In this document: piece by piece, positions 21,927 to 47,625 of the stretch | Position numbering within the stretch: position 1 is the first letter of the stretch | Layout of the letters: each line of letters starts with the position of its first letter | Assembly (NCBI GenBank): GCA_963851225.1 | Contig: CAWKON010000008.1 | Coordinates: 56,653 to 120,652, forward strand | Direction of reading: 5' to 3' | DNA from: an uncultured Alphaproteobacteria bacterium | GTDB taxonomy: Bacteria > Pseudomonadota > Alphaproteobacteria > Rhizobiales > Beijerinckiaceae | Length of the DNA: 64,000 nucleotides | Position numbers and translations under genes: made by a program | The notes under the pieces: generated by a model | What the model was told of the DNA's origin: nothing | Databases searched by the model: none | What the model saw: the letters and a program-made list of their open reading frames with translations, nothing else

Positions 21927-22930
21927 GCCGCCGGGTCCTGCTTTCTGCGCTAGCGGCGATTCCGGCATTGTCCTAACCGCTCCTTCCCTTGTCGGCACGA
22001 GCGCGGACAAGGGCGTCCGGCAGCCTGCTGCACTCGTGGAACGACGGCGCTGCCAAGCAGGCAATCCTGAATTTCGTGACCGCGGTTACGAGGAAAGGTT
22101 CGCCAGATTTTGTGCCGCCCGCCAAGCGCATCGCGACGTTCGACAACGACGGAACGTTGTGGGTGGAACATCCGATGTACGTTCAAATGGCATTCGCGCT
22201 CGATCGTGGGAAGGCGATGGCTCCGCTCCATCCGGAATGGACGGATCTGCAGCCGTTCAAGGCGGCGCTTGAAGGTGACATGAAAACTCTCGCCGAATCT
22301 GGCGAACACGGGATGATGGTACTCGTCATGGCAACCCATGCTGGCATGACCAATGAGGAATTCCAAAAGATTGTCGTTGACTGGTTCGCGACAGCACGCG
22401 ACGCGAGATTCGAGCGCGCATACACCGAACTCTCATATCTGCCGATGATCGAGCTGCTCTCCTATCTGCGCGTCAACGGATTCAAGACCTATATCGTCTC
22501 GGGAGGCGGCATCGAGTTCATGCGCCCGTGGACCGAGCGTGTCTACGGTGTGCCGCCGGAGCAAGTTGTGGGCTCGTCGATCAAGACGAAATTCCAGATG
22601 CGTGACGGCAGGCCGGAGCTGTTCCGATTGGCTGAGATGAATTTCGTCGATGATAGGGCCGGCAAGCCGGTCGGCATCAATGAGTACATCGGGCGCCGCC
22701 CGATCGCGGCATTCGGCAATTCCGACGGCGATCTCGAAATGCTGCAATAGACGACGATGTCCGGGGGCCCCCGCCTTGGCCTGATCATCCATCACACCAA
22801 TGCGGAACGCGAATACGCCTACGATCGGAACACATCCTTCGGGCGCCTCGACAAGGCCCTGGACGCCGCAGCTATGAATAAATGGGTTGTGGTCGATATG
22901 AAGAACGACTGGAAGCGCATCTTTGCCTTC
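21896..22930 (+). pseudogene. HAD-superfamily hydrolase/phosphatase with twin-arginine (Tat) signal; in-frame TAA after the signal peptide and a frameshift near 22745
   Basis: MSPNPSFFGVSRRVLLSALAAIPALS is followed by a TAA stop. In the same frame come FDNDGTLW (HAD motif I), YIVSGG and GNSDGD (motif IV). The C-terminal block VDMKNDWKRIFAFE lies in another frame. Confidence 0.6.
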
Positions 22931-23149
22931 GAATAACTTAGGTGTTTGATCCCGGGCTTTGATGGTGCATCCTTGTCGCAAGTCTGGAAGGATGCGCTAT
23001 GGGACAAGTTCTGCGCGGATGCGTCACCACGACGGAGTGTGAAATTGCATGGAATAAGGACCCCGCTTTGGGGGTGATTTGCATCCAATCGGGACCCTGG
23101 GGCTGAGGGTCCACAGTGGCCTCCTTGATTCTGGGAGGCCGAGATTGGA

Positions 23150-24643: not shown

Positions 24644-24648
24644 GACTG

Positions 24649-25377
24649 ATGGAACGCACGCAAATCTTCGACCTCATGAGCGAACTCAAGCTCTTCGGCA
24701 TGAGGGGCGCCTATGATGACGTGATGGCGGCTGGCATCAAGCGGCAGCACGAGCCGCCGCAAATCGTCGGCGATCTTCTTCAAGCCGAAATCGCCGAAAA
24801 GCAGGCGCGGTCAATCAAATATCAGATGACCATCGCCAAACTCCCTCTGGCCAAGGACATCGATGATTTTGACTTCAACGGCGCGACCGTCAACGAAACT
24901 CTGGTGCGCGATCTGGCCCGAGGCGGTTTCGTCGCAAGCCAACGCAATGTCGTTCTTGTCGGAGGCACGGGAACCGGCAAGACGCATCTTGCCATTGCCA
25001 TCGCGCGAAGCTGCATCCGCGCCGGCCTGCGCGGCCGCTTCTTCAATACCGTTGATCTCGTCAATCGTCTGGAGGCCGAAGCCCGCGCCGGCCGGCAGGG
25101 CCGAATCGCCGATTACCTCACCCGCAAGGACTTCACCGTTCTCGACGAACTTGGCTATCTGCCCTTCGCTCAGGCTGGCGGGCAATTGCTCTTCCATCTC
25201 GTCAGTCAGCTCTACGAGCGCACCTCGGTCATCGTCACCACCAATCTGGCCTTCGGCGAATGGCCAAGCGTGTTCGGAGACGCCAAGATGACGACCGCGC
25301 TCCTCGACCGGCTTACTCATCATTGCGACATTGCCGAAACCGGAAATGAAAGCTGGCGCTTCAAAAATCGCGCCTGA
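24649..25377 (+). CDS. istB: IS21-family ATP-binding helper protein IstB
   Basis: Walker A ([12 protein letters not shown]), Walker B (LDELGY) and the typical IstB C-terminus. The start lies 6 nt after the istA stop. Confidence 0.9.
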
Positions 25378-25524
25378 TGCTCAAACCCTGCCTCACGCCA
25401 CCGCGCGCGCCCCGGCTGCGCAACTGACCAGCTCCGCCAAGGCGCGCGCTGCCGTTCCCGGCCGTCTCAAAGAGGGGTCCCTTTTGCATGCAAATCTAGG
25501 GTCCAGATTCCTTGCTGATTGACA

Positions 25525-25793
25525 CGACGGAGGCGGTCCGTCGAGCGATACAAAATAGTCAAGAGAGCTTAAGAGCACTCGCCAAGCACTACGGGATCAA
25601 TCAGGAGACCGCCGCCAAATGGAAGAACCGTGAGGCTGTCTCTAATCTGCAGTCGATGCGCAATTCGCGTGGAAACGATTTGGGAGCCTCGTGTCCGGCC
25701 ACTGGCACACTAAGCGTACAAACCGGCAAGCCTCAAAATCGCAGGCCGATTGCGGCAATCGGGCCTTGCAGCACTGCGTTGAAGCCGCTTTGA
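25525..25793 (+). pseudogene. 3' part of an IS-type HTH transposase/OrfA-like ORF interrupted by the IS21 element (5' part at 22999..23037)
   Basis: With the IS and one TSD copy removed, the ORF reads MGQVLRGCVTTTE|AVRRAIQNSQESLRALAKHYGINQETAAKWKNREAV... This is a helix-turn-helix transposase N-terminus. It is truncated after ~100 aa by the converging porin gene. Confidence 0.55.
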
Positions 25794-27527
25794 CGCAAAC
25801 CGCTGCCTTGCGAATAATCGACCTCCAACGCCCGGTATCCGATCATGCTCTGGCAATTCAGGCCGCCGAATTCGAAATTGTGCGCATAGCCGCCGAAAGC
25901 CTGCCAGCTGATCTTGCTGCCGACGCCGAAGCCGCCGATGTCTCCCTTGAGCTGGAATTCGCCACCCGACGCCAGTTGCTGCCGCACGCGAACGCCAACC
26001 AGCGGATCGACCCAGTTCAAATCGCCGGAACTGTCGATCGCCAATTGACCGGTCTGGCTCAGCCCGAGCGCCGGCACGTTGACAGATCCGGTGATATCGA
26101 GCCCCACATTGGCGCTGACGTTCCAGTAGCGAAGGCCAGCGAGCGCGTCGATGGCCGTGTAAGACGCGCCCCCATTCGACCAGCGCGCCAACTCGTAGGC
26201 GCCGCCGGCTTCGAGGATGGATTTTACCGTGAATTTCAGATGCCCGGTCGCGTCCGCCGTCAACGAGACGCCGGTGAACGGCGTGCGCAGCGCGAGGGCC
26301 GAACCCGAAGCCCGCAATTGCGCCCAGAAGAAGTCGCCATAAGCGGCGAATGGGCCGTTGCGCGCCTCGAATCGAGCGCCGAACTCCAGCGGAGGCGTGC
26401 TGACTTTGGTCAAGAGATCGATGAAGCTGAGGTTCGCGCCGATCGTCTCGCCGCGCGCCGTGACCGTGCCGTTGATACCGACCGCCCAGAGATAGGGAAG
26501 AACCGTCACCCGCCAGTCGCCGAAGGCCGGCCTTTCGGCGGCGAAGAATTGTGGCGCGACGAAGATTGGCGTCGCGGCGGATGCGTTTGCCGCGGGCTGT
26601 TGCCCTGCGAAGCGATAGTTGAGGCCGGCGCGAACGACGACGCCGTTGAATTGCGTCGAGCTGGAGATCGAATCGCCGACCTGTCCTGGGCCGACGATCG
26701 CCTGGTGGATCAGCGGGCCGCTGTTGGGAAACGCGACGTTTGCAACGCCGAGATCGTAATAGAGGAACTCCAGTTTCGCCGACAGTTCGCCGGTCAGCGC
26801 CGATTCCACTCCGCCGCCGACCGTCCAGCCGAGACGATTGTTGAAGAAGTCGCTCTTTGCGCCCGCAGACAATAGCAGCGAGGGCGTCAAAGATTGCCTG
26901 ACGGCCGTGCTTGTGGCGATGCCGCCGTAAGCGAGTCCGCCCGTCGCATAGAACAGCATCGTCGGAGTGAAGGCATAGCCGAGGCGGCCGCGGACCGTGC
27001 CGAAATATTCGAGGCTGCGGTTGACGGTGACGCTGGTCACCGCCACGAAGGGCGGAAAAACCGCCGCCGGCGTCACATTGGTGAAGCCGCCGCCGCCGCG
27101 AATGCCTGCGCCCTGGAGGTCGGCCTCAATACCCGCGACGAACCGGTCGGAGAATTGCCAATTGTAACCGGCCTGGCCGCCCGAAAAGAAGCCGTTCAAA
27201 CGCGTGCCGACGGAGCCTGTGGCGCCGCGCGCCGCCGCCGCCGCCCATAGGCTTGGCGAGCCAGGGATTACGGAAGAGTTCGAACAGATTGACCGCCGAC
27301 GTGCCGAAAGTGCTGCTGCCACGCCATGCGTAACCGGAATTGAACCCGATATAGAGCCCGCTCCAGCTGAATACCGGCGGCGCTTCGCTCGGGGAAAGAT
27401 CCGTGGCGAAAGCCGTCGCCGCGAACCCGGCGAAAGCGATGCCGCCGGCTATAAGCGACCGCGCCGCCATTCCGCAAATCGCGGGGTTGAGGAAAAGTGC
27501 GGCGCCCTTCAAAGACGAGGACCTCAT
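25733..27527 (-). CDS. large outer-membrane beta-barrel protein of the Omp25/Omp31/RopB family (two tandem barrel-like halves); one frameshift near 27230-27300
   Basis: Signal peptide and first strands (YIGFNSGYAWR) lie in ORF 27126..27527. The body is GGQAGYNWQFSDRFVAGIEADLQ...GTVRGRLGYAF...LFYATGGLAYG...LEFLYYDLG. The C-terminal residue is Phe. Confidence 0.7.
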
Positions 27528-27964
27528 CTCTTACCTCAATCGTATTCGCGTCAGTCGTGCACCGAACCATCAAGCGTCCGAGCACTGTGTCGCAATTATT
27601 GCGTTTTGAACCAGCGGCGCTATGCCTTCGATTGTAAAAGGGTCGATTTGAGTGCCAATGTGCCCTATTTGCAACATGGAAGGCTGCTCGCAGCTTCCAA
27701 CTTGTTCGTGGCTTCCGCCCTGCCGGAGAGGAAGCGAGCTACATCTCGGTGGTACCGGGATTAGCGAAATAGGTATCGAGCCCGGCGTTGACAAGCGTAT
27801 TCAAAAAGGCTTGTGCACCATTCACAGACCGTCTTTCTTGTTCGGCTCTGACGTGAGGCTTGGTGCGGGAAGGCTCCGGCTTTCGAAGTCGAAGTCATTT
27901 GCCCACACTCCTTCAATATTGGGGAGTACCAGTTCACAGTCTGCGGTTGCTGGTGCCTTAGGAA

Positions 27965-30315
27965 TTGCGACATATGATTTTTATCCGGTTCCAGGCCAAT
28001 TTCGCCATCGCCGCGGCGGCGACAGGTTTGTTGTCCGTCCACCCTACGAAAGCGGAACCGCAAACAGATGCATCTGCCACTTTCGTCGGCGCCGGGGCTT
28101 GCGCCGATTGTCATGCGGCCGAAACCGAGCGCTGGAGGACCTCGCATCACGCCCTTGCGATGCAAAAGGCCGAGGCAGCCACGGTCCTCGGCGATTTCGC
28201 CAACGCAACGCTAACCCATCACGGCGTCACGACGACGTTTTCCCGCGATGGCGAAAAGTTCATGGTGCGGACCGATGGACCGGACGGCGCGCTACACGAC
28301 TATGAAATCGCCTACACTTTCGGCGTCTATCCACTCCAGCAATATCTGATTGCCTTCCGGGGCGGCCGCTATCAAGCGCTCGGCATCGCGTGGGACAGCC
28401 GTCCCAAGGATCAAGGCGGCCAGCGTTGGTTCCATCTTTATCCGGAGCAAACCCCGCGAGCCGGCGACCGCCTTCACTGGACCGGGCGAGATCAAACGTG
28501 GAACTATCAGTGCGCGAGCTGCCATTCTACGGATTTGAAAAAGAACTATGATCTTGCCACCAATACCTATGCCACCCGTTGGAGCGATATAAACGTCGCC
28601 TGCGAGGCTTGCCACGGCCCCGGCTCCCGCCATGTTGCTTGGGCCGAGTCTCGAAAAGCCGAAAGCTCTGGACCGCCACAGGCGGAGCCAAATCCGCCGG
28701 AGACTGGCCGGATGGGGCTCACGGTCCGGCTTGACCCCTCCAACCACTATCAATGGCGGATGAACCCCGAAACGGGCATCGCCCAGCGCGTCGAACCATT
28801 GAACACCCAAGAGCTCGATGTGTGCGCAGGATGCCATTCACGCCGCAAGGTGATCGTAAAGGATCCGCCCGCAGGCGCTGCATTTCTTGATTCCTATTTG
28901 TCCGCATTGCTCGAGCCCAGCTTTTATCATGCCGATGGGCAGATCGATGGCGAAGTGTTCGAATATGGCTCGTTCATCCAGAGCCGCATGTATCTTGCCG
29001 GCGTCACTTGCTCCAATTGCCATGAGCCCCACAGTCTGGCGCTCCGCGTGCAAGGTAATGGACTCTGCGCGCAATGCCATCTGCCAGCGAAATTCGATGT
29101 CGCGGAGCACCATCATCACCCGCAAGGCAGCGCCGGCGCGCAATGCGTCAATTGCCACATGCCCTCGAAAACCTACATGGTGGTGGACGACCGGCGCGAT
29201 CATAGCATCCGTGTCCCCCGGCCTGATCTCGCGGCATCGACCGGTGCGCCCGACGCATGCTCGCAATGCCATGCTGGGAAGACGGCCGAATGGGCCGCGC
29301 AACACATCGCCGAATGGTTTCCGAACGGACGGCAGACGACCCCCCATTTTGGCGCCGCACTATACGCCGGACGAACCAGCGCCGCTGATGCGGAGTACCG
29401 TCTCGACGCGCTAATTGTTGATCAAGGCCAACCAGCCATCGCCAGAGCAAGCGCCTTGGCGTTGCTCGCTCCCTTTGCCACGCCCGCGTCCGAGACCACT
29501 ACTAAGGCAGCGATCGGTGATCCGGACCCGCTCGTTCGCGCGGCCGTCCCGCGCGCGTTGCCCGCGGCACTCACGCCTGCCATGGTGCAAGCGGCCGCAC
29601 CACTACTCAACGATCCGATCCGCGCGGTCCGCATTGAAGCGGCACGGGCGCTCGCTGGTAGCGACCAGCAATCGATGACACCCGAGCAGCAGACGGCTTT
29701 CGCCGCGGCTTACCTTGAATTGTTCGATGCTGAGATGATCGATGCCGACCGGCCGGAAGCACATCTGAAATCTTGGCCTGCTGGAGACAAGGCTTGGCCA
29801 CCGTACAGAGGCAGAGAACTCAATATCGGACGGCCTTGCAACTCGATCAAACCTTCACACCTGCGCTCGTCAATCTTGCCGATCTCGACCGCATGCGTGG
29901 TCTGAACCAAGACAGCGTCGAGCTTTTGCGCAAGGCTATGGCAGTCGAACCAGACAACGCGGACATCCATCACTCGCTTGGACTAGCGCTCGTTCGTCAG
30001 CACAATTACGCCGACGCGATTCCGGAATTGCGGCGAGCCAATGAGCTTGCGCCGGGCAATGCGCGCTACGCCTATGTCTACGCAATCGCGCTGAATTCGG
30101 TTGGCGCTGGCGCGTCGGCAATGGAGTTGCTTGAAGATACCCACAGACGCCACCCCACGGATAGGGATACGCTTCTCGCCCTAGTCTCCATCGCTCGGGA
30201 AGTTGGCGATTTCGCTACCGCGCTTGCCCACGCACGCGAACTTGCTGTGCTTTTTCCGGCCGACATGCAACTTCGCTTGCTGGTCATCGACCTCGAGAAG
30301 CGCCAAGCGCATTAA
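27965..30315 (+). CDS. secreted octahaem c-type cytochrome fused to a C-terminal TPR-repeat domain (frameshift near 29780)
   Basis: Signal peptide, then eight CXXCH motifs (CADCH, CASCH, CEACH, CAGCH, CSNCH, CAQCH, CVNCH, CSQCH). TPR-like repeats follow and continue in ORF 29773..30315. Confidence 0.75.
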
Positions 30316-30363
30316 AGTTTCACCAGCGCGTACTCCAGGCCGAAAGACCTAGCCGTAGCTAGA

Positions 30364-30763
30364 TCAGCCGCCGGCGCGAGACGTGTTCAGCGTCACGGCC
30401 GCGCGAATAAGAGCTTTCAATGCCTCCTCGTCTATCTCCTTGCCTTCGTGGAAATCGATGGCACGCCTGGTGTTGCCATCGAGGCTGGAGTTGAAGAGGC
30501 CTGAGGGGTCGTCAAGTGCGGCCCCCTTGGCAAAGGTCATCTTTACGACATTCTTGTAGGTCTCGCCCGTGCAGATCAATCCGTCGTGGTGACCACACCG
30601 GAACCCCTCTCCACTTCCACTCCTCGACCACCTCTGGGTCGGCTTGCTTGATCAAGGCGCGGAGCTGGGAGAGCATCTCGCCCCGCCAGTCGCCCAGCTC
30701 CCTGATCCTCTCGTCTATCATCTGAGATGGAGATTTTCGTTCCGGAGATCCGCTCTTACCCAT
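30364..30763 (-). CDS. DUF1801 (YdhG-like) domain protein, one frameshift near 30560
   Basis: WRGEMLSQLRALIKQADPEVVEEWKWRGVPVW and then GETYKNVVKMTFAKGAALDDPSGLFN are consecutive DUF1801 blocks in two frames. Confidence 0.6.
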
Positions 30764-31002
30764 GATGTTTCATCGCCGTCGTACACGCCACCAAGACCAT
30801 CCTGTGCCCGGCGCAAGCGCTCCTTCCCGAAACATGCTTCCATTCGACTATGCAGCGCAGACTTTTGTTTAACCTTGACCATAACCGTGCTATTATCTTC
30901 GCATGCTTTTTTTCCATGGATGAAATACTGCTCGCCGGCATGACAATGGACAAGCGATATTTACGGCCTTCTCGATGTCCGGTAGCCCACAGGTTCAACC
31001 GT

Positions 31003-32081
31003 ATGATTTCCTCTCCTGCTGCTGATAGCAGTGACACAGTTCTGCAAAAGATCACAGCGCAGAAGTCGCGCGCGGCGATCTTTTTAGTGCTTACGATCAA
31101 TCCCGACCCTGCGGATGCGGCCGCCGTTCTTACATTTGTGCCCGATCTTTCGACTCTCGTCCGTGCGGTCGGATTTGGCTATCCGGAAGCTGGTCTTTCC
31201 TGCGTCATGGGTTTTGGTTCGCAAGCATGGGATCGGCTATTTGACGGTGCCCCGCGGCCCTTGGAACTCCATCCCTTTCGCGAGTACCATGCCGGGCCCC
31301 GCCATGCCGTCGCAACTCCAGGAGATTTGCTTTTTCATATCCGCGCTGACCGCCTTGATCTCTGCTTCAATCTGGCCGCTCTTATCATGGAGCGTCTCAG
31401 GAATTCTGTTACTGTTGCTGATGAAGTGCAAGGCTTTCAATTCTACGATAACCGGGATCTGCTGGGCTTTGTCGACGGCACGGAAAACCCCGAAGATGGA
31501 GGAAGCGGTCGATGCCATATTGATCGGCACGGAAGATCCGGCCTTTACAGGCTCGAGCTATGTGATCGTTCAAAAATATCTGCACGATATAGGAGGTTGG
31601 AACTCGCTTCCCGTCGAGGTCCAGGAGCGCATCATTGGCCGCAAGAAATTGGAAAACACCGAACTCGACGCCACCGTAAAACCGACCTATGCGCATAATG
31701 CGTTGACGACGATTATCGAGAACGGTCAAGAAAAGAAGATCCTCCGCGAGAACCGGCCCTTCGGCCGCCCGGGCCAAGGCGAATTCGGGACTTATTTTAT
31801 CGGTTACGCGCGCTCTCCAAGCACGATTGAGCAGATGCTCGAAAATATGTTTATTGGGCGTCCGCCAGGCAATTATGACCGGCTGCTCGATTTCAGCCGC
31901 GCCGTTACGGGCACTTTGTTTTTCGTTCCAACAGGGACCTTTCTGGACAATCTTAGTGCAAACCAACCGGCGACTGTTACGTCGTCCTCGCGATCCCGCG
32001 GCGCAAGGCTCGGCACAAATCATTTCGCCGGTGCGCGACGGTTCGCTTGGCATCGGCTCTCTCAAAGGAAACTCCCGATGA
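31003..32081 (+). CDS. DyP-type (dye-decolourising) haem peroxidase, encapsulin cargo with C-terminal targeting peptide; two frameshifts (~31500, ~31960)
   Basis: DyP GXXDG motif (LLGFVDGTENP) and proximal His region are present. C-terminal targeting peptide ...SPVRDGSLGIGSLKGNSR* . The stop TGA overlaps the encapsulin ATG (ATGA). Confidence 0.8.
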
Positions 32082-32887
32082 ACAATTTACACCGCGAGCT
32101 AGCGCCAATCTCGGACGAGGCGTGGGCTCAGATTGAAGAAGAAGCATCGAGAACATTAAAGCGATATCTCGCCGCGAGACGCGTCGTCGATCTGCAAGGT
32201 CCAGCTGGTACAATGCTCTCCGCCGTCGGTACCGGTCATACACGTACAATTTCCGGCCCAGGTGACAGTGTGTTGACGCGCCAGCGCGAGGTGAAAGCGT
32301 TGGTTGAGGTACGTGTTCCATTCGAACTCGATCGTCAGCAGATCGACGATGTCGAACGCGGTGCCAATGATTCCGATTGGCAGCCCGTAAAAGATGCTGC
32401 GCGAAAAATGGCTTTCACCGAAGATCGCGCAATCCTCGAGGGCTATCCGGCAGCTGACATCATCGGCATTCGCCAAGGAACCAGCAACCCGGTCATGACT
32501 TTGCCTGCGGTCGTGCGTGGATATCCAGACGCCATTGCTCAGGCCTTAAGTCAGTTGCGGTTAGTCGGTGTCAATGGCCCTTATTCGGTCTTGCTAGGTG
32601 CCGACGCCTATACCAAGCTCGCCGAGTCAAGCGACAATGGTTATCCCATCCTACAGCATGTCCGGCGCTTGATCGAAACGGAGATCGTTTGGGCTCCTGC
32701 CATCGAAGGTGCTGTCGTCCTAACAACGCGTGGAGGCGATTTCGATCTCCACATTGGACAGGACATTTCGATTGGATATTTGAGCCATTCGAACTCAACC
32801 GTGCAGCTTTATCTGCAGGAAACTTTCACATTCCTGCTACTTACGACAGAAGCCTCGGTGACACTGATTCCAGGCACGGCGAATTAG
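32078..32887 (+). CDS. family 1 encapsulin nanocompartment shell protein (HK97 fold; linocin M18-like)
   Basis: 269 aa. MNNLHRELAPISDEAWAQIEEEASRTLKRYLAARRVVD...RVPFELDRQQIDDVERGANDSDW...PAIEGAVVLTTRGGDFDLHIGQD...LYLQETFTF is collinear with mycobacterial Cfp29/Enc. Confidence 0.9.
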   Translation: MNNLHRELAPISDEAWAQIEEEASRTLKRYLAARRVVDLQGPAGTMLSAVGTGHTRTISGPGDSVLTRQREVKALVEVRVPFELDRQQIDDVERGANDSDWQPVKDAARKMAFTEDRAILEGYPAADIIGIRQGTSNPVMTLPAVVRGYPDAIAQALSQLRLVGVNGPYSVLLGADAYTKLAESSDNGYPILQHVRRLIETEIVWAPAIEGAVVLTTRGGDFDLHIGQDISIGYLSHSNSTVQLYLQETFTFLLLTTEASVTLIPGTAN

Positions 32888-33721
32888 GGTCCGTACCCAA
32901 TTGAATTGAACCTCGCGTCATGATTTAAGCTCGTCAGGAGGGCTTGATTCGTGGCGGACAATTTCTGGCTCAGCGATGAGCAATGGGCGGCGATCGAGCC
33001 GCATCTCCCGATGGTCCACACCGGACCTGAACGCAAGGACGATCGCCGCGTCATCAGCGGGATCATCCATCGGTTGCGCGAGGGCTGCCGTTGGCGTGCG
33101 CTTCCCGACGAATATGGGCCGTATACGACGGCCTTCAACAGATACAACCGCTGGAGCCGACGCGGTCTTTGGCAACGGATCTTCGCGGCGCTGGTTGCCG
33201 GCGGCGATCCCCCAGCGCTCACGATGATCGACAGTTCGGCGGTCAAGGCGCATCGCTCGGCGAGCGGCGCCAGAAAAAGGGGGCGCAAAATCAAGCCATT
33301 GGCCGCTCGCGCGGCGGGCGCACGACAAAAATCCATGCGCTCGTCGACGAAGAAGGCCGTCCGCACGCCTTCCTGCTGACCGGCGGACACGTCGCCGACA
33401 TCAAGGGCGCCGCGGCCTTGCTCGCGGCGACAGCGCCAAGCGAACGGTTGATCGGCGACAAAGGCTACGACGCGGATCATTTGCGCCTGTTCCTGCAAAC
33501 ACGCGGCACGACGCCGGTCATTCCCAACAAAATCAACCGCAAGACCCTCTTCCCGTTCGACGCCGAACTTTATCGCCTGCGCAACGTCATCGAGAGAACC
33601 TTCTGCCGGTTGAAAGACTTCCGGGCCATCGCCACCCGATACGACAAACCGCTCGGAAATTTCTTGCCGGCCTGTGCCTCGTCGCCGCGGTCGGCTATTG
33701 GCTCTAATTGAGTCCAGACCC
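32887..33721 (+). mobile_element. IS5-family (IS427-group) insertion sequence, ~835 bp, TA target duplication
   Basis: Imperfect terminal inverted repeats GGGTCCGTACCCAATTG and CTAATTGAGTCCAGACCC. TA occurs at both borders. The left border overlaps the G of the encapsulin TAG stop. Confidence 0.75.
32951..33711 (+). CDS. IS5/IS427-group transposase expressed by programmed -1 frameshift (orfA 32951..33379, orfB 33091..33711)
   Basis: orfA carries the HTH (DEQWAAIEPHLP...RLREGCRWRALPDEYGP). orfB carries the DDE region (LTGGHVADIKGAAALL...DKGYDADHLR...RNVIERTFCRLKDFRAIATRYDK). The slippery A5G5 run lies at ~33273 within the overlap. Confidence 0.8.
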
Positions 33722-35168
33722 TAGCACTACTTTGGCAGTTTGGTTTCGACGGCGTTGGCGAGGAGTTTCTCACGGTGGGGGCATCGCCTGGGTGGAGGCC
33801 GTGCGAAGAGGTCGAGGATGGCTTGCCTGATGGCCGGCATGCTTGGTTGTGGCGGCGGCCCCCCAATTCTTTTTTTTCCGTCCCGCTGCTTTGAGGCGGC
33901 GGGATTGGAGGAAGGCATAGGCGATCATGGTCATCAAGGCGTGCCGGTGTAACCCGGTCCAGGATCGGCCTTCGAAGTGGTCGAGGCCAAGTTCCTCCTT
34001 GAGCTGCTGATGCGCCTGCTCACAGACCCATCTGGCTTTGATCGTGGCGGCGAGCATCTTGAGGCTCGCATCGGCTGGTAAGTTCGACACATAGTATTTT
34101 CGCTCGCCAGTCGACCGGCGTTCGCCGACGAGCCAGACCTCGTCGCCCGGCATGCACTGCATACGATTATCGAGCATGCGGTGCTTATGGCCATCCGCAA
34201 CGCGGACACGGCGGGCCGCGAAGAGACATGTCAGCCGACCTTTGGTGCCTCGCCGCCAGCTGACCTTTTGCCATTTCCCACCGGCCAACAACGCTTCAGC
34301 AGAGACCGGGGGCTGATCAGGGATGTGGTATTTGCGGGGCTTTCCGGCCTTCGCGACGGGGAAGATCAGGGCAACGTCGGCGGGATAGACGTTCTGGGCG
34401 GGCGACAGACCCACCGCCCACAGCAGACCGCGCTCGCTCAAGGCCTGACGGAAAAGCCCGCTGGAGCCGTACCCTGAATCGGCAAGCACACAACCGAAGC
34501 GCGCACCGGAGGCGATGACGCGATCGATCTCCGCGACCGCAATTTCCGTCTTTGTCAGAGCAGTCTGTCTATCCTTCGGCACACCGGCTCGCGCCATGCG
34601 CTCAGGATCATCTGTCCAGCTCTCGGGCAGGAATAGCCGCAGGCCCACCATCACCGGCACCTCGCGCGACGCTAACGTTACCGAGACCAGCGACTGACAG
34701 TTGGCAGTCTTTCCAAGCGACGAGGCATATTGTGGCGCGACGCCAACCGAGTGGCGTCCCTTCTTGGGCAACGCCGTATCATCGATGACAAGAAACCCCG
34801 CCTCATCGCCAACCAGGCCATCTGCCTCCTTCAACAGGGCAGCCTCGAGTGGAGCACTGTCCCAAACTCCGGCAGCGACGAAATGATGAAGCTGGTCGTA
34901 GCCGACCTCGCCAGCGCGCGCCGCCATCGGCTGAACGCTCTTGCGGTCTCCTGGACCAATCAAACCCGCGACATAGAAAGGGCACATCCGCGCCCGCGTC
35001 TTGTGCCGTAACGCCGCGACAAACGGCGCAAGCCAGCGATCGAGATCGACTTGCCAGTCCACGTCCATTGATCGGCCCTCCAAGCCGACCTCTCATGAAT
35101 CACGCAAAACCTCCCTTGGGAATCCAAAAAACTCGCCCATCCCTAAAAATCTGCTAAAGTAGTGCTAA
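33722..35168 (-). mobile_element. IS701-like (IS4 superfamily) insertion sequence, ~1.45 kb
   Basis: 17-bp terminal inverted repeats TAGCACTACTTT(G/A)GCAG at 33722.. and, as reverse complement, at ..35168. A single DDE transposase ORF lies inside. Confidence 0.7.
33770..35068 (-). CDS. IS701-family DDE transposase
   Basis: MDVDWQVDLDRWLAPFVAALRHKTRARMCPFYVAGLIGPGDRKSVQPMA is a typical IS701-type N-terminus. 432 aa and intact. Confidence 0.7.
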   Translation of the reverse strand: MDVDWQVDLDRWLAPFVAALRHKTRARMCPFYVAGLIGPGDRKSVQPMAARAGEVGYDQLHHFVAAGVWDSAPLEAALLKEADGLVGDEAGFLVIDDTALPKKGRHSVGVAPQYASSLGKTANCQSLVSVTLASREVPVMVGLRLFLPESWTDDPERMARAGVPKDRQTALTKTEIAVAEIDRVIASGARFGCVLADSGYGSSGLFRQALSERGLLWAVGLSPAQNVYPADVALIFPVAKAGKPRKYHIPDQPPVSAEALLAGGKWQKVSWRRGTKGRLTCLFAARRVRVADGHKHRMLDNRMQCMPGDEVWLVGERRSTGERKYYVSNLPADASLKMLAATIKARWVCEQAHQQLKEELGLDHFEGRSWTGLHRHALMTMIAYAFLQSRRLKAAGRKKKNWGAAATTKHAGHQASHPRPLRTASTQAMPPP

Positions 35169-35185
35169 TGCGTCAGCAGCAGACG

Positions 35186-36463
35186 TTACGCGAAGGCTTG
35201 GCTAATGTCGGCGATAAGATCGTCAGGATGCTCGATCCCGATCGATATACGAACCAATGACGGAGTTATTCCGATTTCACGACGGGCCTGTTCCGTGAGC
35301 CCGGAATGCACTGTCGTCTCGGGATGACAAATCAAGGATTCCGTTCCGCCCAGACTGACCGCCAATTTGAATACTTGAAGGCGATTGAGGAAAGCGAACG
35401 CCTCCGCTTGATTTCCTTTGACGTCGAAGGAGAACGTCGAGCCGGCCGAACTGGACTGCCGCTCCATCAACTTTCGCGTGGGATGATCGTTGGGAAGCAA
35501 GGGCGGATAATGGACGCACGCCACCTTGGGGTGACTGGCGAGAAAGTTCGCCACGGTCGCGGCATTGCTGGCCGCTCGCCTCATCCGAAGCGAAAGTGTC
35601 TCCAGAGAGCGCGCCAACATCCAGCACGAATGCGGATCGAGCTGCGTGCCGATGGCGCTGCGCATCGCGCGAATGGGCTTCAGATCTGCGGCAGAGCCTA
35701 GAATTGCGCCGCCAATGAGGTCGCTATGACCACCAACATATTTCGTGAGAGAATAGAGCGACAAATCAGCGCCATGTCGGAGAGGCGATTGAAACACAGG
35801 CCCGAGGAGCGTGTTGTCGCAACAGACAATGGGTCGCGAGCCTTGGCTGCGTGTGATGTCGTCCGCAATTCGACTGACCAGCGCGATGTCGACGAGGCTG
35901 TTCATCGGATTTGACGGCGTCTCGATAAAAATCATTGCGATGCGCCCATCGGCACGGGCGCGCTTGGCGGTCGCGCGAATTTTTTTCTCGTTGAGTCCGT
36001 CTGCAAAGCCGACGCCTTTGACACCAAAGGGCGCAAGGGTCTTATCGATGAGAACTTCCGTGCCGCCATAAAGTGGCCGGCTATGTAAGACCGTTTCGCC
36101 CGGTCGCACATAAGCAAGCATCAGCGTGATGATGGCCGCCATGCCGGAAGCAAACACTAGCCCGCTTTCCGCCTTTTCGTGGATCGCGAGCCGATCCTCG
36201 ACGATTTCCAGGTTCGGATGATTGAAGCGAGAATAAACGAGGCCGGTTTCTCCTTCGACCGGAGGCGCGCGGCGTCCAGCCATATAGTCGAAAAAATCGC
36301 GACCCTGTTCTGCTGTTTGGAAGACGAAGGTAGAAGTCAGAAACACCGGCGGCTTGACCGACCCTTCCGAGAGACGAGGATCATACCCGTATCCGAGCAT
36401 CAGCGTTTCGGCATTCAACTCGTGTTCGCCAATTTTAATTTGGTGATAGCGCGCGGTGGCCAT
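35186..36463 (-). CDS. PLP-dependent Cys/Met-metabolism enzyme (cystathionine gamma-synthase/beta-lyase/methionine gamma-lyase family)
   Basis: PLP-lysine motif [15 protein letters not shown], plus GMAAI and ETPSNP blocks. The start is taken at MATARYH. Confidence 0.8.
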
Positions 36464-36756
36464 GGCAATTCCTTTCGAAAGGTATCGGGCAACCCTTGCC
36501 GACTGTTCACCGTTCGACACGGGAGAAGGTAGAGAACTCACCGATCATTTCCTACGGCCAGTGCCGCAGGTCGTGGCTGCAGGATTAGCGCGCACAGTGT
36601 GACTGACTAACTCCTTGGATTTTGATATAGGTTCGATAATGCCAATGCCTTCAAAATTTTCTACGCCCGCAATGCATTGCTCTGTCTGCCACGTTGCTTG
36701 ATTGATCAAGGCTTGCTGGAGCGAACTGGTTCTGTGCTAGATTGGACGGGTCCGAA

Positions 36757-38130
36757 ATGCTTGAGACTGTAGCGAACGAACACGATCCGGGCGTGACTTC
36801 TGAGCAGGCACCAAAAAAAGACGTGCCACTTCACGAAATCGTGATCGTCGGTGGTGGAGCTGGGGGATTGGAACTTGCTACGGGCCTGGGCAACACGCTT
36901 GCAAGGAAAAGGAAGGCGCGGGTTACGCTCGTCGACAAAGCGCGTGCGCACCTCTGGAAGCCGCTTCTACACTCCGTGGCAGCCGGCAGCCTCGATTTTG
37001 ACGAGCATGCGCTCGATTATCTTGCCCAAGCGCATTGGCATGATTTTGGCTATCGCTTTGGAGAAGTGATCGGACTCGATCGCAGCCGCAAACAGATCCA
37101 ACTTGCGGCGACACATGATGAGGAGGGCATCGAGATCACTCCACCGCGATCGATACACTATGACACGTTGGTCATCGCGATCGGCAGCATCACGAACGAT
37201 TTCGGTACGCCTGGAGTGAGCCGGCATGCCATCGCCCTTGAGACACCCGACCAGGCGATGCAGTTCAACCATCGACTTGTCAACGCGTGCATTCGCGCAG
37301 ATGCGCAGCCCCATCCGGTGCGTCCGGGACAGCTCCACGTCGCCATCGTCGGCGCGGGCGCGACTGGAACCGAGCTGGTGGCTGAGCTCCATCGGACCAC
37401 GCGCGAGGTCGTCGCCTTTGGCCTCGACCGCATCGATCCAGAAAGAGATATTCATATCACTCTGATTGAGGCTGCCGATCGAATCCTTCCCGCATTGCCA
37501 CCGCGGATATCCGATGCCACGTTCGGGCTGTTGAAGAGCCTCCGCGTCGATGTAAGGACGAACTCAAAAGTAACTGAGGTTCGCGCTGACGGTGTACAAC
37601 TTGCCGATGGCGGATTCATTCCTTCCGAACTTGTGATCTGGTGCGCCGGTGTGAAGGGCCCGGATGTCCTCAGCCGATTGGATGGTCTCGAGACCAACCG
37701 GATAGGCCAACTCGTCGTCACCCCGACTCTTCAGACCACTCACGATCCCGATATTTTTGCGATCGGCGATTGCGCGGCCTGTCCTCAGCCAAGCGGCGAC
37801 GGAGACGTCCCACCACGGGCTCAGGCCGCCCATCAACAGGCGTCGCATCTCATCAGGCAGCTTCCGCGGTGGCTGAGAGGAGAACCGCTAAAACCCTACG
37901 TCTATCGCGACTTCGGCTCGCTTGTTTCGCTCGGTCGGAGCACCGTCGGAAATCTGATGGGATTTCTCGTCGGGAGGAGTTTTTTCATCGAAGGCTACTT
38001 CGCGCGTTTGATGTATCGTTCCCTCTACAAGATGCACGAGGCTGCCCTGTACGGAATCCCGAACGTGATACTCGGAACAATTGCCCGAAGCTTTGGCCGG
38101 CGTAACGCGCCCGTGGTGAAGCTTCATTAG
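36757..38130 (+). CDS. ndh: type II NADH dehydrogenase (NDH-2)
   Basis: Two GXGXXG dinucleotide folds (IVIVGGGAGGLELA and VAIVGAGATGTELV) and AIGDCA near the C-terminal membrane-anchoring region. Confidence 0.85.
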   Translation: MLETVANEHDPGVTSEQAPKKDVPLHEIVIVGGGAGGLELATGLGNTLARKRKARVTLVDKARAHLWKPLLHSVAAGSLDFDEHALDYLAQAHWHDFGYRFGEVIGLDRSRKQIQLAATHDEEGIEITPPRSIHYDTLVIAIGSITNDFGTPGVSRHAIALETPDQAMQFNHRLVNACIRADAQPHPVRPGQLHVAIVGAGATGTELVAELHRTTREVVAFGLDRIDPERDIHITLIEAADRILPALPPRISDATFGLLKSLRVDVRTNSKVTEVRADGVQLADGGFIPSELVIWCAGVKGPDVLSRLDGLETNRIGQLVVTPTLQTTHDPDIFAIGDCAACPQPSGDGDVPPRAQAAHQQASHLIRQLPRWLRGEPLKPYVYRDFGSLVSLGRSTVGNLMGFLVGRSFFIEGYFARLMYRSLYKMHEAALYGIPNVILGTIARSFGRRNAPVVKLH

Positions 38131-38365
38131 AGCGTATCCCGAATAAATAGACCCAAATTCCGATCAGCACCGGAGAAGCCCGCAGGAATATATAGCGACA
38201 ACGCAGCAGCAACAATGTGCGAAACTGGGGCGATAGCCGTGCGACATTGTTGCGGCGTTGTCGCCCATCAACTGCTATTCTATAAAGGTATCGTCAGTAG
38301 TGAGATGGTTCATCAGCAAATTCTATCCGCATGTGAGCCTCGAATTTTAGGGAAGAGTGCAGGCT

Positions 38366-38728
38366 ATGACCAAGATCCCCTATGAAATCCCCGCCGAAAT
38401 CCGTGACTTGACCGCGAAAACCGTCGAGGAGGCCCGCAAGGCCTTCGGAAGTTTTATTGAGGCTGCTCATAAGGCAACCGCGCAGGCGGAAGACACCGCA
38501 ACCGCCCTGCAATCGAGCGCCAAGGACGTCAGCGCAAAGGCACTCAGCTTTACCGAGGCGAATTTGAAGGCGGCGTTCGATCACGCCCAGAAGCTCATTC
38601 AAGCGAAGGATCCCCAAGAAATCCTCGCCCATCAGTCCGAATATGTGAAGAAGCAGCTCGCCGCAATGGAGGAGCATGCGAAGGAGCTAGGCACCGCTAT
38701 CCTGAAAGCCGTGAAGCCGGACAAGTAA
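38366..38728 (+). CDS. phasin (PHA granule-associated protein)
   Basis: ~120-aa all-helical Ala/Lys/Glu-rich protein (MTKIPYEIPAEIRDLTAKTVEEARKAFGSFIEAA...), typical of alphaproteobacterial phasin family. Confidence 0.75.
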   Translation: MTKIPYEIPAEIRDLTAKTVEEARKAFGSFIEAAHKATAQAEDTATALQSSAKDVSAKALSFTEANLKAAFDHAQKLIQAKDPQEILAHQSEYVKKQLAAMEEHAKELGTAILKAVKPDK

Positions 38729-38890
38729 TCACGCCCTTCGTCTTGTAAGGACGAACTCAATGGCAATCCCGCGCCAGAGTGATGAGCTGCTGGCAGCGGA
38801 GGAGTTCCTCGCGAGTATAATTATCCTGTCGCGTATTTGAACTTTAGCAAGTTGATCGAGGCAATCATTCATTCTGAAAGGGACGCTACA

Positions 38891-39910
38891 ATGACCGGTC
38901 CGGCGACACAACAACCCACGCCGCAGTTGTTCTTTCAGACAATCAACTCGTATCAACGCACCGAAGCATTGAAGGCCGCGATCGAGCTCGAAGTCTTCAC
39001 GGAGATTGGAAAAGGCAGCTCCGCCGTTCCGGAGATTGCTAAGCGATGCCAAACGTCAGAACGAGGCATGCGCATCCTTTGCGACTATCTGTGCATCATG
39101 GGATTTCTCGCGAAAGACGGCGGGCGTTACAATTTGACTCAAGACACCGCCGTGTTTCTTGATAAGCGCTCGCCGGCATACCTCGGAGGTGCGATCGATT
39201 TTCTGCTGTCGCCCATGCTGACGGACGGATTTAAGGATCTGGCTGCGGTGGTCAGAAAGGGTGGCGCCGTTATCTCCGAGGAAGGCATGGTCGCTCCGGA
39301 GCATCCTATCTGGGTGAAGTTTGCCCGCGCGATGGCCCCGATGATGGCGATGCCTTCGCAATTGATGGCCAAACTGGTGGACGAAAAGGCGGATCGAAAT
39401 CTGAAGATTCTTGATATCGCCGCCGGCCATGGATTGTACGGAATCGCCTTTGCGAAAAACAATCCGCGGGCAGAAATCGTCGCGTTGGATTGGGCGCCCG
39501 TGTTGGAAGTCGCGAAAGAGAACGCGCGCAATGCCGCGGTTAGCGATCGTTACAGTACGATTGAAGGCAGCGCGTTTGATGTCGACTATGGCAGCGGGTA
39601 CGATCTGGTGCTGCTGACGAACTTCTTGCACCACTTCGACATGGTCACTTGCGAAACATTGCTCCGCAAGGCAAAGGCAGCCCTCGCTGACGGCGGTCGC
39701 GCTGTGACATTAGAGTTTGTGCCGAACGAGGATCGAATCTCGCCGCCGGAGGCTGCGGGGTTTAGCATGGTGATGCTTGGTGGGACCCCGAGCGGCGACG
39801 CTTACACTTTTACCGAGTTAGAACGGATGTTCAGCAACGCCGGATTTGCGCGCAGCGAAATTCATCCTTTGCCACCGTCGATTGAGCAGGTGGTGATCTC
39901 GCATAAGTAG
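38891..39910 (+). CDS. class I SAM-dependent O-methyltransferase (family 2, N-terminal dimerisation/wHTH + Rossmann MT domain)
   Basis: SAM motif [16 protein letters not shown], motif [10 protein letters not shown], and an N-terminal wHTH region ([19 protein letters not shown]). Confidence 0.8.
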
Positions 39911-40136
39911 TTGTTACTTCCTTTGGAGACTGTCCGGCCAAGACCCGCGCAAGCTATAATATTCGAGCGGATTGTTATGGCGGTCCGGATGCGGCACCAT
40001 GCAGTTCGCCGCAGGCTTCGCAGCGCCCCTCGACTTTTTGGAGGCACCGTTATTTCGTGGCCAGTGAAGACACGCCGCCTGTTACCATCCTGGCGAAAAG
40101 AGGCTCACTTCTTTAGGATCACGATCTGATTTGTCT

Positions 40137-40304
40137 CTACGGCAGCGTCGCAATGATGGTAGTGACTGCCGCCAATTGAGCATTCAGAGCCGTCTCCAAC
40201 TCCTGGAAGGCGGCCTTGATTTCCGATGGCGTCCCGCAACTGCATTGATCGACGAGCTGAGCGACGACGCTATTGATTTTGTCCGTAATGGTTTCTGTTG
40301 CCAT
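40137..40304 (-). CDS. candidate small protein (55 aa) MATETITDKINSVVAQLVDQCSCGTPSEIKAAFQELETALNAQLAAVTTIIATLP
   Basis: A perfect SD (GAGGAGGtcaaaATG) lies 6 nt upstream. Below the 60-aa ORF-track cutoff. Helical, with a CxC motif. Confidence 0.35.
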   Translation of the reverse strand: MATETITDKINSVVAQLVDQCSCGTPSEIKAAFQELETALNAQLAAVTTIIATLP

Positions 40305-40668
40305 TTTGACCTCCTCTGAATAACCCCTAACTACAGGACTAGATTGGGCGCCCCATTGCGAGGAAAGGAGCTAACTGCGCAAACCGCTAAAGCACGAACT
40401 TTAGCTCGCGTGCTTGACAGAATCGATTCGCTTTTCAAACTCCCCGCCCTGAGACGAATGACGCGTTGTGACGTTAAGGAAACGGCTTTGCCAATCCCAG
40501 AAGGCGGGGTTTCGTGATATGAACGAGGCTGGGTCTATTTTGGGACAAGGCAAGGAAACCCTTCGCGCCACGATTGGGGACGAAACGGCAACATTTAATC
40601 CCGTGCCCACTGATCAGGCGCGGGCACCAAGTAAAAAACATAATACAATCAAAGATTTACAAATCAAC

Positions 40669-40744
40669 TGGCTCCCTGAGCAGGACTCGAACCTGCGACC
40701 GATCGATTAACAGTCGATTGCTCTACCAACTGAGCTATCAGGGA
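40669..40744 (-). tRNA. tRNA-Asn (anticodon GTT), CCA encoded
   Basis: Reverse complement TCCCTGATAGCTCAGTTGGTAGAGC..CGACTGTTAATCGATCG..GGTTCGAGTCC..TCAGGGAGCCA folds as a cloverleaf with anticodon loop CTGTTAA. Confidence 0.9.
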
Positions 40745-40896
40745 TTAGCGTGATGACGCGCCGCGCATATAGCAAGCCCGCGCCGCCTTTGCAAAGCGCC
40801 AACGGCCGCGGCTTCGGCTTTTGCTGGCCGGGAGCGCGCGCCTTGCGGTAAAACCTCATCCTTTGTATAGGCGGGGGCCCCTCTCGTGGCGGCAGA

Positions 40897-40970
40897 GGCC
40901 TCGTGGCGGAATGGTTACGCAGAGGACTGCAAATCCTTCCATCCCGGTTCGATTCCGGGCGAGGCCTCCA
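40897..40970 (+). tRNA. tRNA-Cys (anticodon GCA), CCA encoded
   Basis: GGCCTCGTGGCGGAATGGTTACGCAGAGGACTGCAAATCCTTCCATCCCGGTTCGATTCCGGGCGAGGCCTCCA has acceptor, D, anticodon (CTGCAAA loop) and T arms. Confidence 0.9.
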
Positions 40971-40981
40971 AACAAACGCCT

Positions 40982-43336
40982 TCAGCCGATCGCGGCCTTG
41001 CGCAGCCGCAGGGCGTTGCCGATCACGCTGACAGAGGAGAGCGACATCGCGGCGGCCGCGATGACCGGCGACAGCAGAATGCCGAAGGCCGGGTAAAGCA
41101 CACCGGCGGCGACCGGAACTCCGGCGGCATTGTAAACAAACGCAAAGAAGAGATTTTGCCTTATGTTGCGCATCGTCGCCTGGGAGAGGTGGCGCGCCCG
41201 CAGGATACCCCGCAGATCGCCCTTAAGCAGGGTGACACCCGCACTCTCAATCGCGACATCGGTGCCAGTGCCCATGGCGATGCCGACGTCGGCAGCGGCA
41301 AGCGCCGGGGCGTCGTTGACGCCATCGCCGGCCATGGCAACGATGCGGCCTTGCGCGCGCAAATCTTCGACCACAGCACTCTTCTTGTGAGGCAAAACGC
41401 CCGCCGTGACATCCGCGATGCCGAGCCGGCGTGCCACTGCCTCGGCGGTGGTCTTATTGTCGCCGGTAAGCATGACCACGCGCACGCCTTCGCTTTGCAG
41501 CGCCTTGATCGAATCGGGCGCCCCCGGCTTAACCGGATCGGCGATGGCGAGGAGCCCGGAAGTCTTGCCATCGACGCCCATGAAGACGACGGTGGCACCA
41601 TCTTTCCGCAAAGCGTCCGCCTCTTCGGCAAGCTCTTTCGTACTGATGCCGCTCGCATCGAGAAAACCGGCATTGCCTATCGTAAGTTTACGGCCATCAA
41701 CCTCGCCCAAAACCCCTTTTCCAGCAGGCGCGTCGAACCCTAATGGCTCGGATAATTCGAGCTTGCGCTCCTTCGCCGCTTCGACGATCGCGACCAGCAA
41801 GCGGATGTTCGCTGGCCCGCTCCAGGCTTGCGGCAAGCCGCAAAAATTCGTCCTCGCCAAGGCCCGCCAAGAGTCCGGATCGCCACGACCTTCGGCTTGC
41901 CTTCGGTAAGGGTGCCGGTCTTGTCTACGACGAGCGTGTCGATCTTTTCCATGCGCTCCAGCGCCTCGGCGTTCTTGATGAGGACGCCCAATTGCGCGCC
42001 GCGTCCAACTCCAACCATGATCGACATCGGCGTTGCGAGGCCGAGCGCGCAGGGGCACGCAATAATCAAGACCGAGACGGCGGCGACGAGCCCGTGGGCG
42101 AAGCGCGGCTCTGGGCCAAGGATCGCCCATGCGGCAAAGGCGGCAACGATGTGGCGATCACCAGGGGCACGAACCAGGCGGCGACCTGATCGGCAAGGCG
42201 CTGGACCGGCGCGCGGCTGCGTTGCGCCTTCGCCACCAGTCTGCACGATTTGCGAGAGCAGCGTATCGCGTCCGACCTTTTCCGCGCGCATGATGAATGA
42301 GCCGGTTTGGTTCAACGTGCCGGCGATGACCTTGGCGCCCGCGTCCTTGCCGACCGGCATGGATTCGCCAGTGACGAGCGACTCGTCGATCGTCGCGCGC
42401 CCTTCGAGAATCGCTCCATCGACCGGCACTTTTTCGCCCGGCCGCACCCGCAGGCGGTCGCCAACAGCGATCGCATCGAGCTGTACTTCTTCGTCGCTCC
42501 CGTCATTGCGGACGCGCCGCGCGCTCTTTGGTGCGAGGTTAAGAAGCGCTTTGATCGCGTTGGAGGTTTGCTCGCGCGCCCGGAGTTCCAGTACCTGGCC
42601 GAGCAGGACAAGAACAGTGATGACCGCGGCGGCCTCGAAATAGATCGCGACCGCGCCGCCGGCGCCTTGGAATGCTTCCGGAAAAAGACCCGGGGCCATT
42701 GTCGCGGCGGTGCTGTAAACCCAAGCAACGCCGGTTCCCATGCGCGATCAGCGTGAACATATTTAGATTGCGTGTTGCGAGCGATCGCGCGCCGCGCTCA
42801 AAAAACGGCCAGCCCGCCCAAAGAACGACGGGCGTGGCAAGAACAAACTGTACCCAATTCGATGTCTCCTGCGAGATCAGCCTGTGAAGATTGAAGAGAT
42901 GACCGCCCATCTCCAAAACCACCACCGGCAGACTGAGCGCGAGCGCGATCCAGAAACGCCTCGTCATTTCGGCAAGTTCGGGATTTGGACCCGCATCCGT
43001 GTTCGTTACATCGGGTTCGAGCGCCATGCCGCAAATCGGACAATGGCCGGGGCCGGTTTGGCGGATCTCTGGATGCATGGGGCAGGTGTAGATGGCGCTT
43101 TCCGGCACTGGCGCCGGCGGTTTCGGCTGCGCGCCTAATGAAGGACACAGGGTTGGCGGCGAATTTTGTTTTGCACCCCTGGCCGCAAAAATAATAGGTA
43201 TGGCCGCCGTATTCGGCGCTGTGCTTGGCGCTGTGCAGGATCGACAGTCCATGCCGCAAACCGGATCCTTTTCTAATTGCGTGGCCTCGCCACCTTTGCC
43301 TGACTGTGCGTGCGGGTGATCATGATGATCGTGCAT
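40982..43336 (-). pseudogene. P1B-type heavy-metal (Cu/Zn-type) translocating ATPase with His-rich/TRASH-type N-terminal metal-binding domains; frame broken >=2-3 times
   Basis: N-terminus MHDHHDHPHAQ, DPVCGM, YTCPMHPEIRQ..CPICGM. The CPC transduction motif ([13 protein letters not shown]), DKTGTLT, GDGVNDAPAL and the C-terminal TMs are spread over ORFs 42539..43336, 41740..42741 and 40982..42130. Confidence 0.8.
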
Positions 43337-47599: not shown

Positions 47600-47625
47600 C
47601 CGCGCGGCAACAGGAAAGCCTTCAT

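Follow-up and report, generated by a model that had tools for sequence, protein, structure and literature searches.

We report on a predicted DyP peroxidase-encapsulin operon of an uncultured alphaproteobacterium (Beijerinckiaceae) and on two insertion sequences (IS) that abut the stop codon of its shell gene. The operon lies within a 64,000-nucleotide stretch of contig CAWKON010000008.1 (NCBI GenBank assembly GCA_963851225.1, positions 56,653 to 120,652 of the forward strand), which is referred to as the window and to which all coordinates refer. Here a cargo gene for a DyP-type peroxidase is followed by the gene for a family-1 encapsulin shell protein, an IS5-family element, an IS701-family element and, in the opposite orientation, a gene for a pyridoxal-phosphate (PLP) enzyme.

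The DyP-encapsulin operon

The operon and its convergent neighbour, which is given as context and is not part of the system, comprise the following features:

31003-32081, plus strand: gene for the DyP-type (B-type, encapsulin-associated) peroxidase cargo (Dyp_perox_N, Dyp_perox_C, TIGR01413)
32037-32063, plus strand: targeting peptide GSLGIGSLK, within the last 14 residues ...DGSLGIGSLKGNSR (corrected translation)
32078-32887, plus strand: family-1 encapsulin shell gene, 269 aa, intact (NF041155, Linocin_M18)
35186-36541, minus strand: cystathionine gamma-synthase-family PLP enzyme gene, convergent (NF005455, 673.8 bits)

The predicted shell protein covers the whole of the NF041155 (encap_f1) model (positions 1-261 of 261; 348.8 bits, cut-off 100) and matches Pfam Linocin_M18 (PF04454) with an E-value of 4.5e-97, i.e. 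it is a full-length member of the Linocin_M18/encap_f1 family, which has the HK97 fold. Together with the DyP domains encoded next to it, these matches bear out the assignment in the original prediction, a family-1 encapsulin with a DyP cargo. Protein searches returned many encapsulins of 269 residues; one of these (P0001) is 99% identical to the window protein and shares with it the C-terminus ...LIPGTAN, and the closest match from a genome, Methylocapsa polymorpha, has 91% amino-acid identity. An exact look-up of the shell protein, the IS701 transposase and the PLP enzyme found no record of any of them. The ratio of non-synonymous to synonymous substitution rates (dN/dS) is 0.07 for the shell gene.

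An IS-free version of the locus is present on the Joint Genome Institute (JGI) soil metagenome contig that encodes P0001 (L081), with a DUF1801 gene on the minus strand, the DyP gene (358 aa), the encapsulin gene (269 aa) and the convergent PLP-enzyme gene in the same order as in the window. In a BLAST comparison, positions 1-4003 of L081 correspond to 28872-32883 of the window with 95.8% identity and positions 4120-5222 to 35173-36275 with 98.5% identity. The L081 shell gene ends in GCG AAC TAA and is followed by a 125-nt spacer, and from this alignment and the position of the window stop codon (TAG, 32885-32887) it follows that the window shell protein has its native length. The shell gene is thus intact, as first proposed, with the model covered in full and with both length and C-terminus as in P0001. 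The stop codon of the DyP gene overlaps the start codon of the shell gene as ATGA at 32078-32081, again in agreement with the initial reading, and the gene pair with this 4-nt overlap is kept in five orthologous loci (L081, L082, L083, L096 and L097).

In the assembly the DyP gene measures 1079 nt and is divided among three reading frames. The first piece (31003-~31497) matches Dyp_perox_N and positions 3-156 of TIGR01413, the second (~31498-~31988) matches Dyp_perox_C and positions 161-322 of TIGR01413, and the third (~31990-32081) encodes the C-terminus quoted in the list above. With two extra bases, 31498 and 31989, removed the gene is 1077 nt long and stop-free, and its 358-aa product, in which both DyP domains and the GXXDG motif (as GFVDG) are present, is identical to the L081 DyP at 340 of 358 positions (95%), while its dN/dS is 0.22. 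The corrected gene lies directly upstream of the shell gene and its product ends in ...GSLGIGSLKGNSR, where GSLGIGSLK fits the GSLxIGSLK consensus that was derived from 1193 encapsulin-associated DyPs and shown to mediate DyP loading (PMC10960027); the canonical targeting peptide of the original prediction is accordingly retained.

The closest solved shells are 9i8d, 8u50, 6i9g and 7boj (E 1e-107 to 1e-112) and the closest solved peroxidases are the encapsulin-associated DyPs 8u4z and 7bok (E 1e-119 to 1e-125). As in the window, the DyP gene is upstream and the shell gene downstream in Klebsiella pneumoniae (8u50/8u4z), Mycobacterium smegmatis (7boj/7bok) and Brevibacterium linens (6i9g), and the shells of the solved DyP encapsulins have a similar size (265-269 aa). 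The window operon differs from these in its host lineage and in that IS elements abut the stop codon itself, whereas no functional difference was seen in the sequence; the K. pneumoniae DyP-encapsulin operon is likewise flanked by transposases (PMC10960027). Judged from its sequence, the operon represents the standard type of family-1 encapsulin system, here in a Methylocapsa-like alphaproteobacterium. By homology to the solved DyP systems, from which we infer assembly, T number and cargo loading, the haem peroxidase would dock through its C-terminal GSLGIGSLK on the inner face of the 269-aa HK97-fold shell, and the shell would form a DyP-loaded T=1 particle of approximately 24 nm.

Frame breaks in the cargo gene and single-base insertions in the window

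The two frame breaks of the DyP gene and the other genes that are split in the assembly are:

31498, plus strand: first DyP frame break, an extra G in GATGGAGG (alignments to L081 and L082; frame scan)
31989, plus strand: second DyP frame break, an extra C in CCTCGCG (alignments to L081 and L082)
30364-30763, minus strand: DUF1801 gene, divergent from dyp, split by an extra base at 30590
27965-30315, plus strand: multihaem-cytochrome/TPR gene, interrupted by one extra base each at 29768 and 29816
47645-48939: hslU, split into at least three open reading frames (ORFs) that match successive parts of AAA_2
49085-49877: class-I (W/Y) tRNA synthetase gene, split in two

Both breaks in the cargo gene, as first described, are present in the window sequence, and the comparison with IS-free orthologous loci that had been proposed as a check finds both of them absent from L081 and L082. 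In a global alignment of 4 kb against L081 there are nine indels and each of them is an additional base in the window. Two are the DyP breaks (31498 and 31989), two lie in the cytochrome/TPR gene (29768 and 29816), one in the DUF1801 gene (30590), which is kept beside dyp in L081, L082, L083 and L096, and four in the non-coding DUF1801-DyP spacer (30835, 30843, 30907 and 30984). The independent contig L082, whose alignment does not reach 29768 and 29816, shows eight gaps, again all of them single additional bases in the window; one of these, at 30824, has no counterpart against L081, and the others coincide with the L081 positions or lie a few bases off. Several of these insertions are not homopolymer extensions.

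The excess of insertions extends to other parts of the window. A CDF transporter gene is split as well as hslU and the tRNA synthetase gene, and in all three the pieces match consecutive parts of the same Pfam models. Compared with the metagenome contigs L099, L100 and L105, the window has an additional base at 47718, 47954, 48457, 48857, 49056, 49581, 49863 and 49872, and one single-base deletion; between hslU and 51.9 kb nearly all single-base gaps are of the insertion type, most of them seen in two or three of the contigs and those past ~50.1 kb in L105 only. Moreover, a reference-free scan with a codon model identified ~30 direct switches between frames of the same strand, ~22 of which were of the +1 type, and recovered 31498 and 29767.

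Since essential genes are repeatedly broken, the changes are insertions only and non-coding DNA is hit as well, the DyP frame breaks are most likely single-base assembly errors, and the cargo gene would be intact in the organism. The frame breaks of the original prediction thus stand as features of the assembled sequence, but not as a property of the cargo gene, given the window-wide excess of +1 changes that also affects hslU and the tRNA synthetase gene. The errors probably stem from low-coverage long reads, which would also account for the assembly of the IS elements described below in their context.

Two points weigh against this interpretation. The insertions are clustered, with none in the segment from 31990 to ~38100 that spans both IS elements and three long genes, a pattern at odds with a uniform error process; moreover, judged from the assembled sequence, there is a small probability that the frameshifts are real. 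With respect to the distribution in the window, blocks rich in frame switches, mostly of the +1 type (6800-18300, 29700-32000, 38700-51900 and 60900-61500), are found beside blocks without frequent switches (1-6400, 18300-29700 and 32000-38700), and this alternation fits an assembly in which single-base insertion errors are patchy.

If the frameshifts were real the cargo gene would be a pseudogene and the shell an orphan, possibly empty, in a genome in which IS elements spread and genes decay. The breaks do stand in the sequence as given, there are IS elements at the locus, and several neighbouring genes are broken as well, as in decaying genomes. However, the breaks are exclusively of the +1 type, occur also in non-coding DNA and are in several cases outside homopolymers, whereas true decay is expected to yield deletions besides insertions. 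Furthermore, hslU and the class-I W/Y tRNA synthetase gene, both essential and single-copy, are each broken several times, and the DyP gene has no other lesion and the dN/dS of 0.22 given above. We therefore regard a decayed cargo gene as improbable.

The second extra base joins the middle DyP frame to the encapsulin frame and so generates a 590-aa ORF (31115-32887), which raises the question of a genuine DyP-encapsulin fusion or, alternatively, of programmed recoding at the breaks. The middle DyP frame indeed enters the encapsulin frame without a stop codon, and natural cargo-shell fusions are known in other encapsulin systems (Pyrococcus furiosus). On the other hand, the product would hold only the C-terminal half of DyP owing to the first break, no slippery motif was found when both break sites were inspected for one, and similar +1 insertions occur throughout the window. 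In addition, each of the five orthologous loci has an unbroken DyP ORF (356-367 aa) that includes both a stop codon of its own and the targeting peptide. The 590-aa ORF results from the second extra base and is not a cargo-shell fusion, and we consider both fusion and recoding to be very improbable.

As a side observation, the segments 51900-58900 and 60000-64000 have a G+C content of 54-55%, compared to 58-62%, and are non-coding according to the codon model, which was trained on local genes; these segments may be foreign or differently composed.

Two insertion sequences at the shell-gene stop codon

Between the shell gene and the PLP-enzyme gene the following features were delimited:

32885-32886: left TA copy of the IS5 target duplication, positions 1 and 2 of the stop codon
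32887-33721, plus strand: IS5-family, IS427-group insertion sequence, 835 bp (NF033580, DUF4096, DDE_Tnp_1)
33722-33723: right TA copy of the IS5 target duplication
33721-33724: CTAG, left copy of the IS701 4-bp target duplication; the C is also the final base of the IS5 right inverted repeat
33725-35164, minus strand: IS701-family insertion sequence, 1440 bp, with the ends CACTACTTTGGCAG / CTGCTAAAGTAGTG (NF033540, Pfam DDE_5)
33770-35083, minus strand: IS701-family transposase gene (NF033540, 417 bits, cut-off 150)
35165-35168: CTAA, right copy of the IS701 4-bp target duplication, one base off CTAG
35169-35185: remnant of the encapsulin/PLP-gene spacer (BLAST of L081)

The IS5-family element has the ends GGGTCC...GACCC with inverted repeats that agree at ~15 of 18 positions, and a TA duplication on its two sides. 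NF033580 matches its two halves with 127.7 and 150.1 bits; orfA extends from 32951 to 33379, orfB lies in the -1 frame and ends at 33711, and an A5G5 run is found at ~33271-33280. Size, inverted-repeat length, 2-bp direct repeat and two overlapping ORFs are the features tabulated for such IS5/IS427 elements in Paracoccus (PMC3281130). Elements of the IS427 group, such as IS1248, ISPaes1 and ISPpa6 of Paracoccus, measure 832-865 bp, and the window element, with 835 bp, resembles them in its inverted repeats (~18 bp), in its 2-bp target duplication and in the -1 frameshift that links its two overlapping ORFs; in the NCBI annotation related copies appear as 758-nt (frameshifted) coding sequences. 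Ends of the type GGG...CCC together with a TA duplication were found in three copies, including those of Mesorhizobium (L084) and Aminobacter (L180), at sites T-TA-G and C-TA-A. No close copy of the element was present in the plasmid collection, the best match being that in Aminobacter with 69% nucleotide identity.

The ends of the IS701-family element were defined from ten other copies with 75-93% identity, which reside on alphaproteobacterial plasmids. These start with CACTACTTTGGCA and end with TGCCAAAGTAGTG, and CACTAC...GTAGTG is present in all ten. Each is flanked by a direct 4-bp repeat, which is CTAG in eight copies and CTAA on both sides in two (L090 and L092), and because CTAA...CTAA is direct and not inverted the four flanking bases belong to a target duplication rather than to a terminal repeat. 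The window element encodes a transposase of the family, has inverted repeats that agree at 13 of 14 positions (17 of 20 with the flank) and is flanked by a CTAR duplication (R, purine), of which the two copies, CTAG and CTAA, match at three of four positions. It shares with the IS701 family (NF033540) the single DDE_5 transposase of ~432 aa and the size of 1440 bp, and relatives with the 4-bp CTAR duplication are found in Mesorhizobium, Lichenicola, Methylocystis and on other alphaproteobacterial plasmids. Unlike the ten copies, its duplications mismatch by one base, and its right inverted repeat carries one change (CTGCTAAAG, where the consensus has CTGCCAAAG). Positions 35155 and 35168 are thus two departures from the ten-copy consensus within 14 nt, both of them C:G to T:A.

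As an alternative, ends of the type GCAC...GTGC with a duplication of TA only were considered, in which the TTAG...CTAA of the window would represent a perfect TTAA target with the native stop TAA; this was ruled out by the CTAA on both sides of the copies L090 and L092.

The terminal inverted repeats of the two elements do not recur within the window, where zero matches are expected by chance, and the window holds no further copies of either element. The inverted repeats of the original prediction are real, and so are the type of the IS5 element and its TA duplication. By contrast, an IS701 terminal repeat beginning with TAGCAC is at odds with the end CACTAC in all ten copies, which places the TAG in the flank or duplication. 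Nor does the IS701 element supply the encapsulin TAG, since the present TAG is made up of the left TA copy and base 1 (G) of the IS5 left inverted repeat.

Downstream of the elements, ~110 nt of the L081 spacer have no counterpart in the window; in L081 the stretch 4004-4119 (116 nt) is concerned, as compared with 35165-35172 of the window. The native spacer is known from L081 only, as L082, L094, L096 and L097 have other downstream genes. A search of the IS-free L081 spacer for an intrinsic terminator or unusual structure found none, with a folding z-score of -0.1. Of the proposed replacement of 3' untranslated region and terminator by mobile DNA, the loss of the native 3' flank is therefore confirmed, but not that of a terminator. 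With respect to transcription, the IS5 transposase gene is co-oriented with dyp-enc and could, as the arrangement suggests, receive read-through from the operon. The IS701 transposase gene is co-oriented with the PLP gene, whose end lies 18 nt away.

Order of insertion and possible target regeneration

While the anatomy of the two mobile elements can be read directly from their ends and duplications, their order has to be deduced. In six of seven close orthologues the native stop codon TAA is preceded by C. If the IS5 element was first, the flanks of the IS701 element are CTAG and CTAA, with one mismatch; if the IS701 element was first, removal of the IS5 element together with one TA leaves TTAG on the left as against CTAA on the right, with two mismatches. 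In both cases the shell protein stays as it was and neither element is interrupted.

On sequence grounds, insertion of the IS5 element followed by that of the IS701 element, side by side and not nested, is somewhat favoured. The native stop codon, TAA or TAG after a pyrimidine (Y), would have formed a YTAR site, which both elements prefer as target. The TA of this stop codon would have been entered, and duplicated, by an IS5 element of the IS427 group; as the first base of the element is G, a TAG stop would have been restored with the protein unchanged. The C of the IS5 right end, the TA and the next purine would then have made a new C-TA-R site, into which an IS701-family element entered with its usual 4-bp duplication, and later one base would have changed in one copy of this duplication.

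The opposite order is the one originally proposed, and we consider it rather unlikely. In it, an IS701-like element would have reached the end of the shell gene before the IS5 element and provided the stop codon, and the TA of this junction would later have received the IS5 element as a nested insertion. This order is in keeping with the entry of IS427-type elements into the TA of YTAR, which the IS701 CTAR duplication would provide, and with the native C-TAA of the orthologues, a perfect IS701 target for which the right flank CTAA is the expected duplication. However, with the IS5 element excised TTAG and CTAA match at only two of four positions, while the duplications are perfect in all ten other copies; furthermore, the TAG is outside the IS701 terminal repeat, and the composite L084 has a T and not a C to the left of its IS5 element. 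Nesting in an IS701-derived TAG is accordingly less parsimonious than insertion of the IS5 element first.

The composite in question, on a plasmid of Mesorhizobium sp. INR15 (NZ_CP045497.1, 69290-71570; L084), reads CTCT-TA[IS5]TA-G[IS701]CTAG-AATG and so has the same architecture as the window. As the base to the left of its IS5 element is T, a perfect CTAG/CTAG duplication is obtained only when the final C of an IS5 element already in place is counted in.

Against the preferred order it has to be said that the mismatch of CTAG and CTAA requires at least one point change (G33724 or A35168) in every order, and that the choice rests on only one substitution of parsimony. Moreover, the difference in the spacer is seen against one orthologue and may stem from an older polymorphism, from a deletion that came later or from the action of an IS.

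Two further loci bear on the neighbourhood of such elements. In L084 and in Paracoccus liaowanqingii (NZ_CP040762.1; L088) an IS427-type right end (GAGTCYRGACC) is followed by CTAG and an IS701-like left end; the IS5-family neighbour in L088 is interrupted by an IS110 element and is uninformative on order. In Roseovarius (L091) an IS5-family gene adjoins the other end of an IS701-like copy and cannot be delimited, so that it is of no use for the order. The neighbours in L084, L088 and L091 suggest recurrent mutual targeting of the two types of IS, and the IS5::CTAG::IS701 junction itself is common to the window, Mesorhizobium INR15 and P. liaowanqingii.

CTAG is four-fold under-represented in the window, with 57 occurrences compared to 236 expected from base composition, and because of this depletion stop codons are a natural share of the targets. 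Tentatively, and with slightly less than even confidence, we suggest that IS427-group elements and this IS701 clade regenerate each other's targets and pile up at YTAR sites, which in GC-rich, CTAG-depleted genomes are disproportionately stop codons. Entry of an IS5 element of this kind into TAA or TAG would always rebuild TAG, and such insertions, being silent for the protein, could persist at gene ends.

Taken as a whole, we have considerable confidence in the view of the locus as a standard encapsulin operon with an IS5 and then an IS701 element at its stop codon and with DyP breaks that are assembly errors. For encapsulin biology the gain is little, viz. one more orthologue of the commonest cargo class, from a soil or peat alphaproteobacterium, and a known system beside members of two known IS families. 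Given the many single-base insertion errors in the window, neither the apparent cargo pseudogene nor the apparent 590-aa fusion ORF is to be trusted as it stands. Only the reciprocal regeneration of targets by IS427-type ends and the IS701 clade, together with stop-codon-preserving insertion, is mildly new. The ends and the 4-bp CTAR target of this IS701 clade are now empirically defined, as is its recurrent juxtaposition with IS427-type ends, and the case shows that TA-duplicating elements can occupy a stop codon and leave the protein unaltered.

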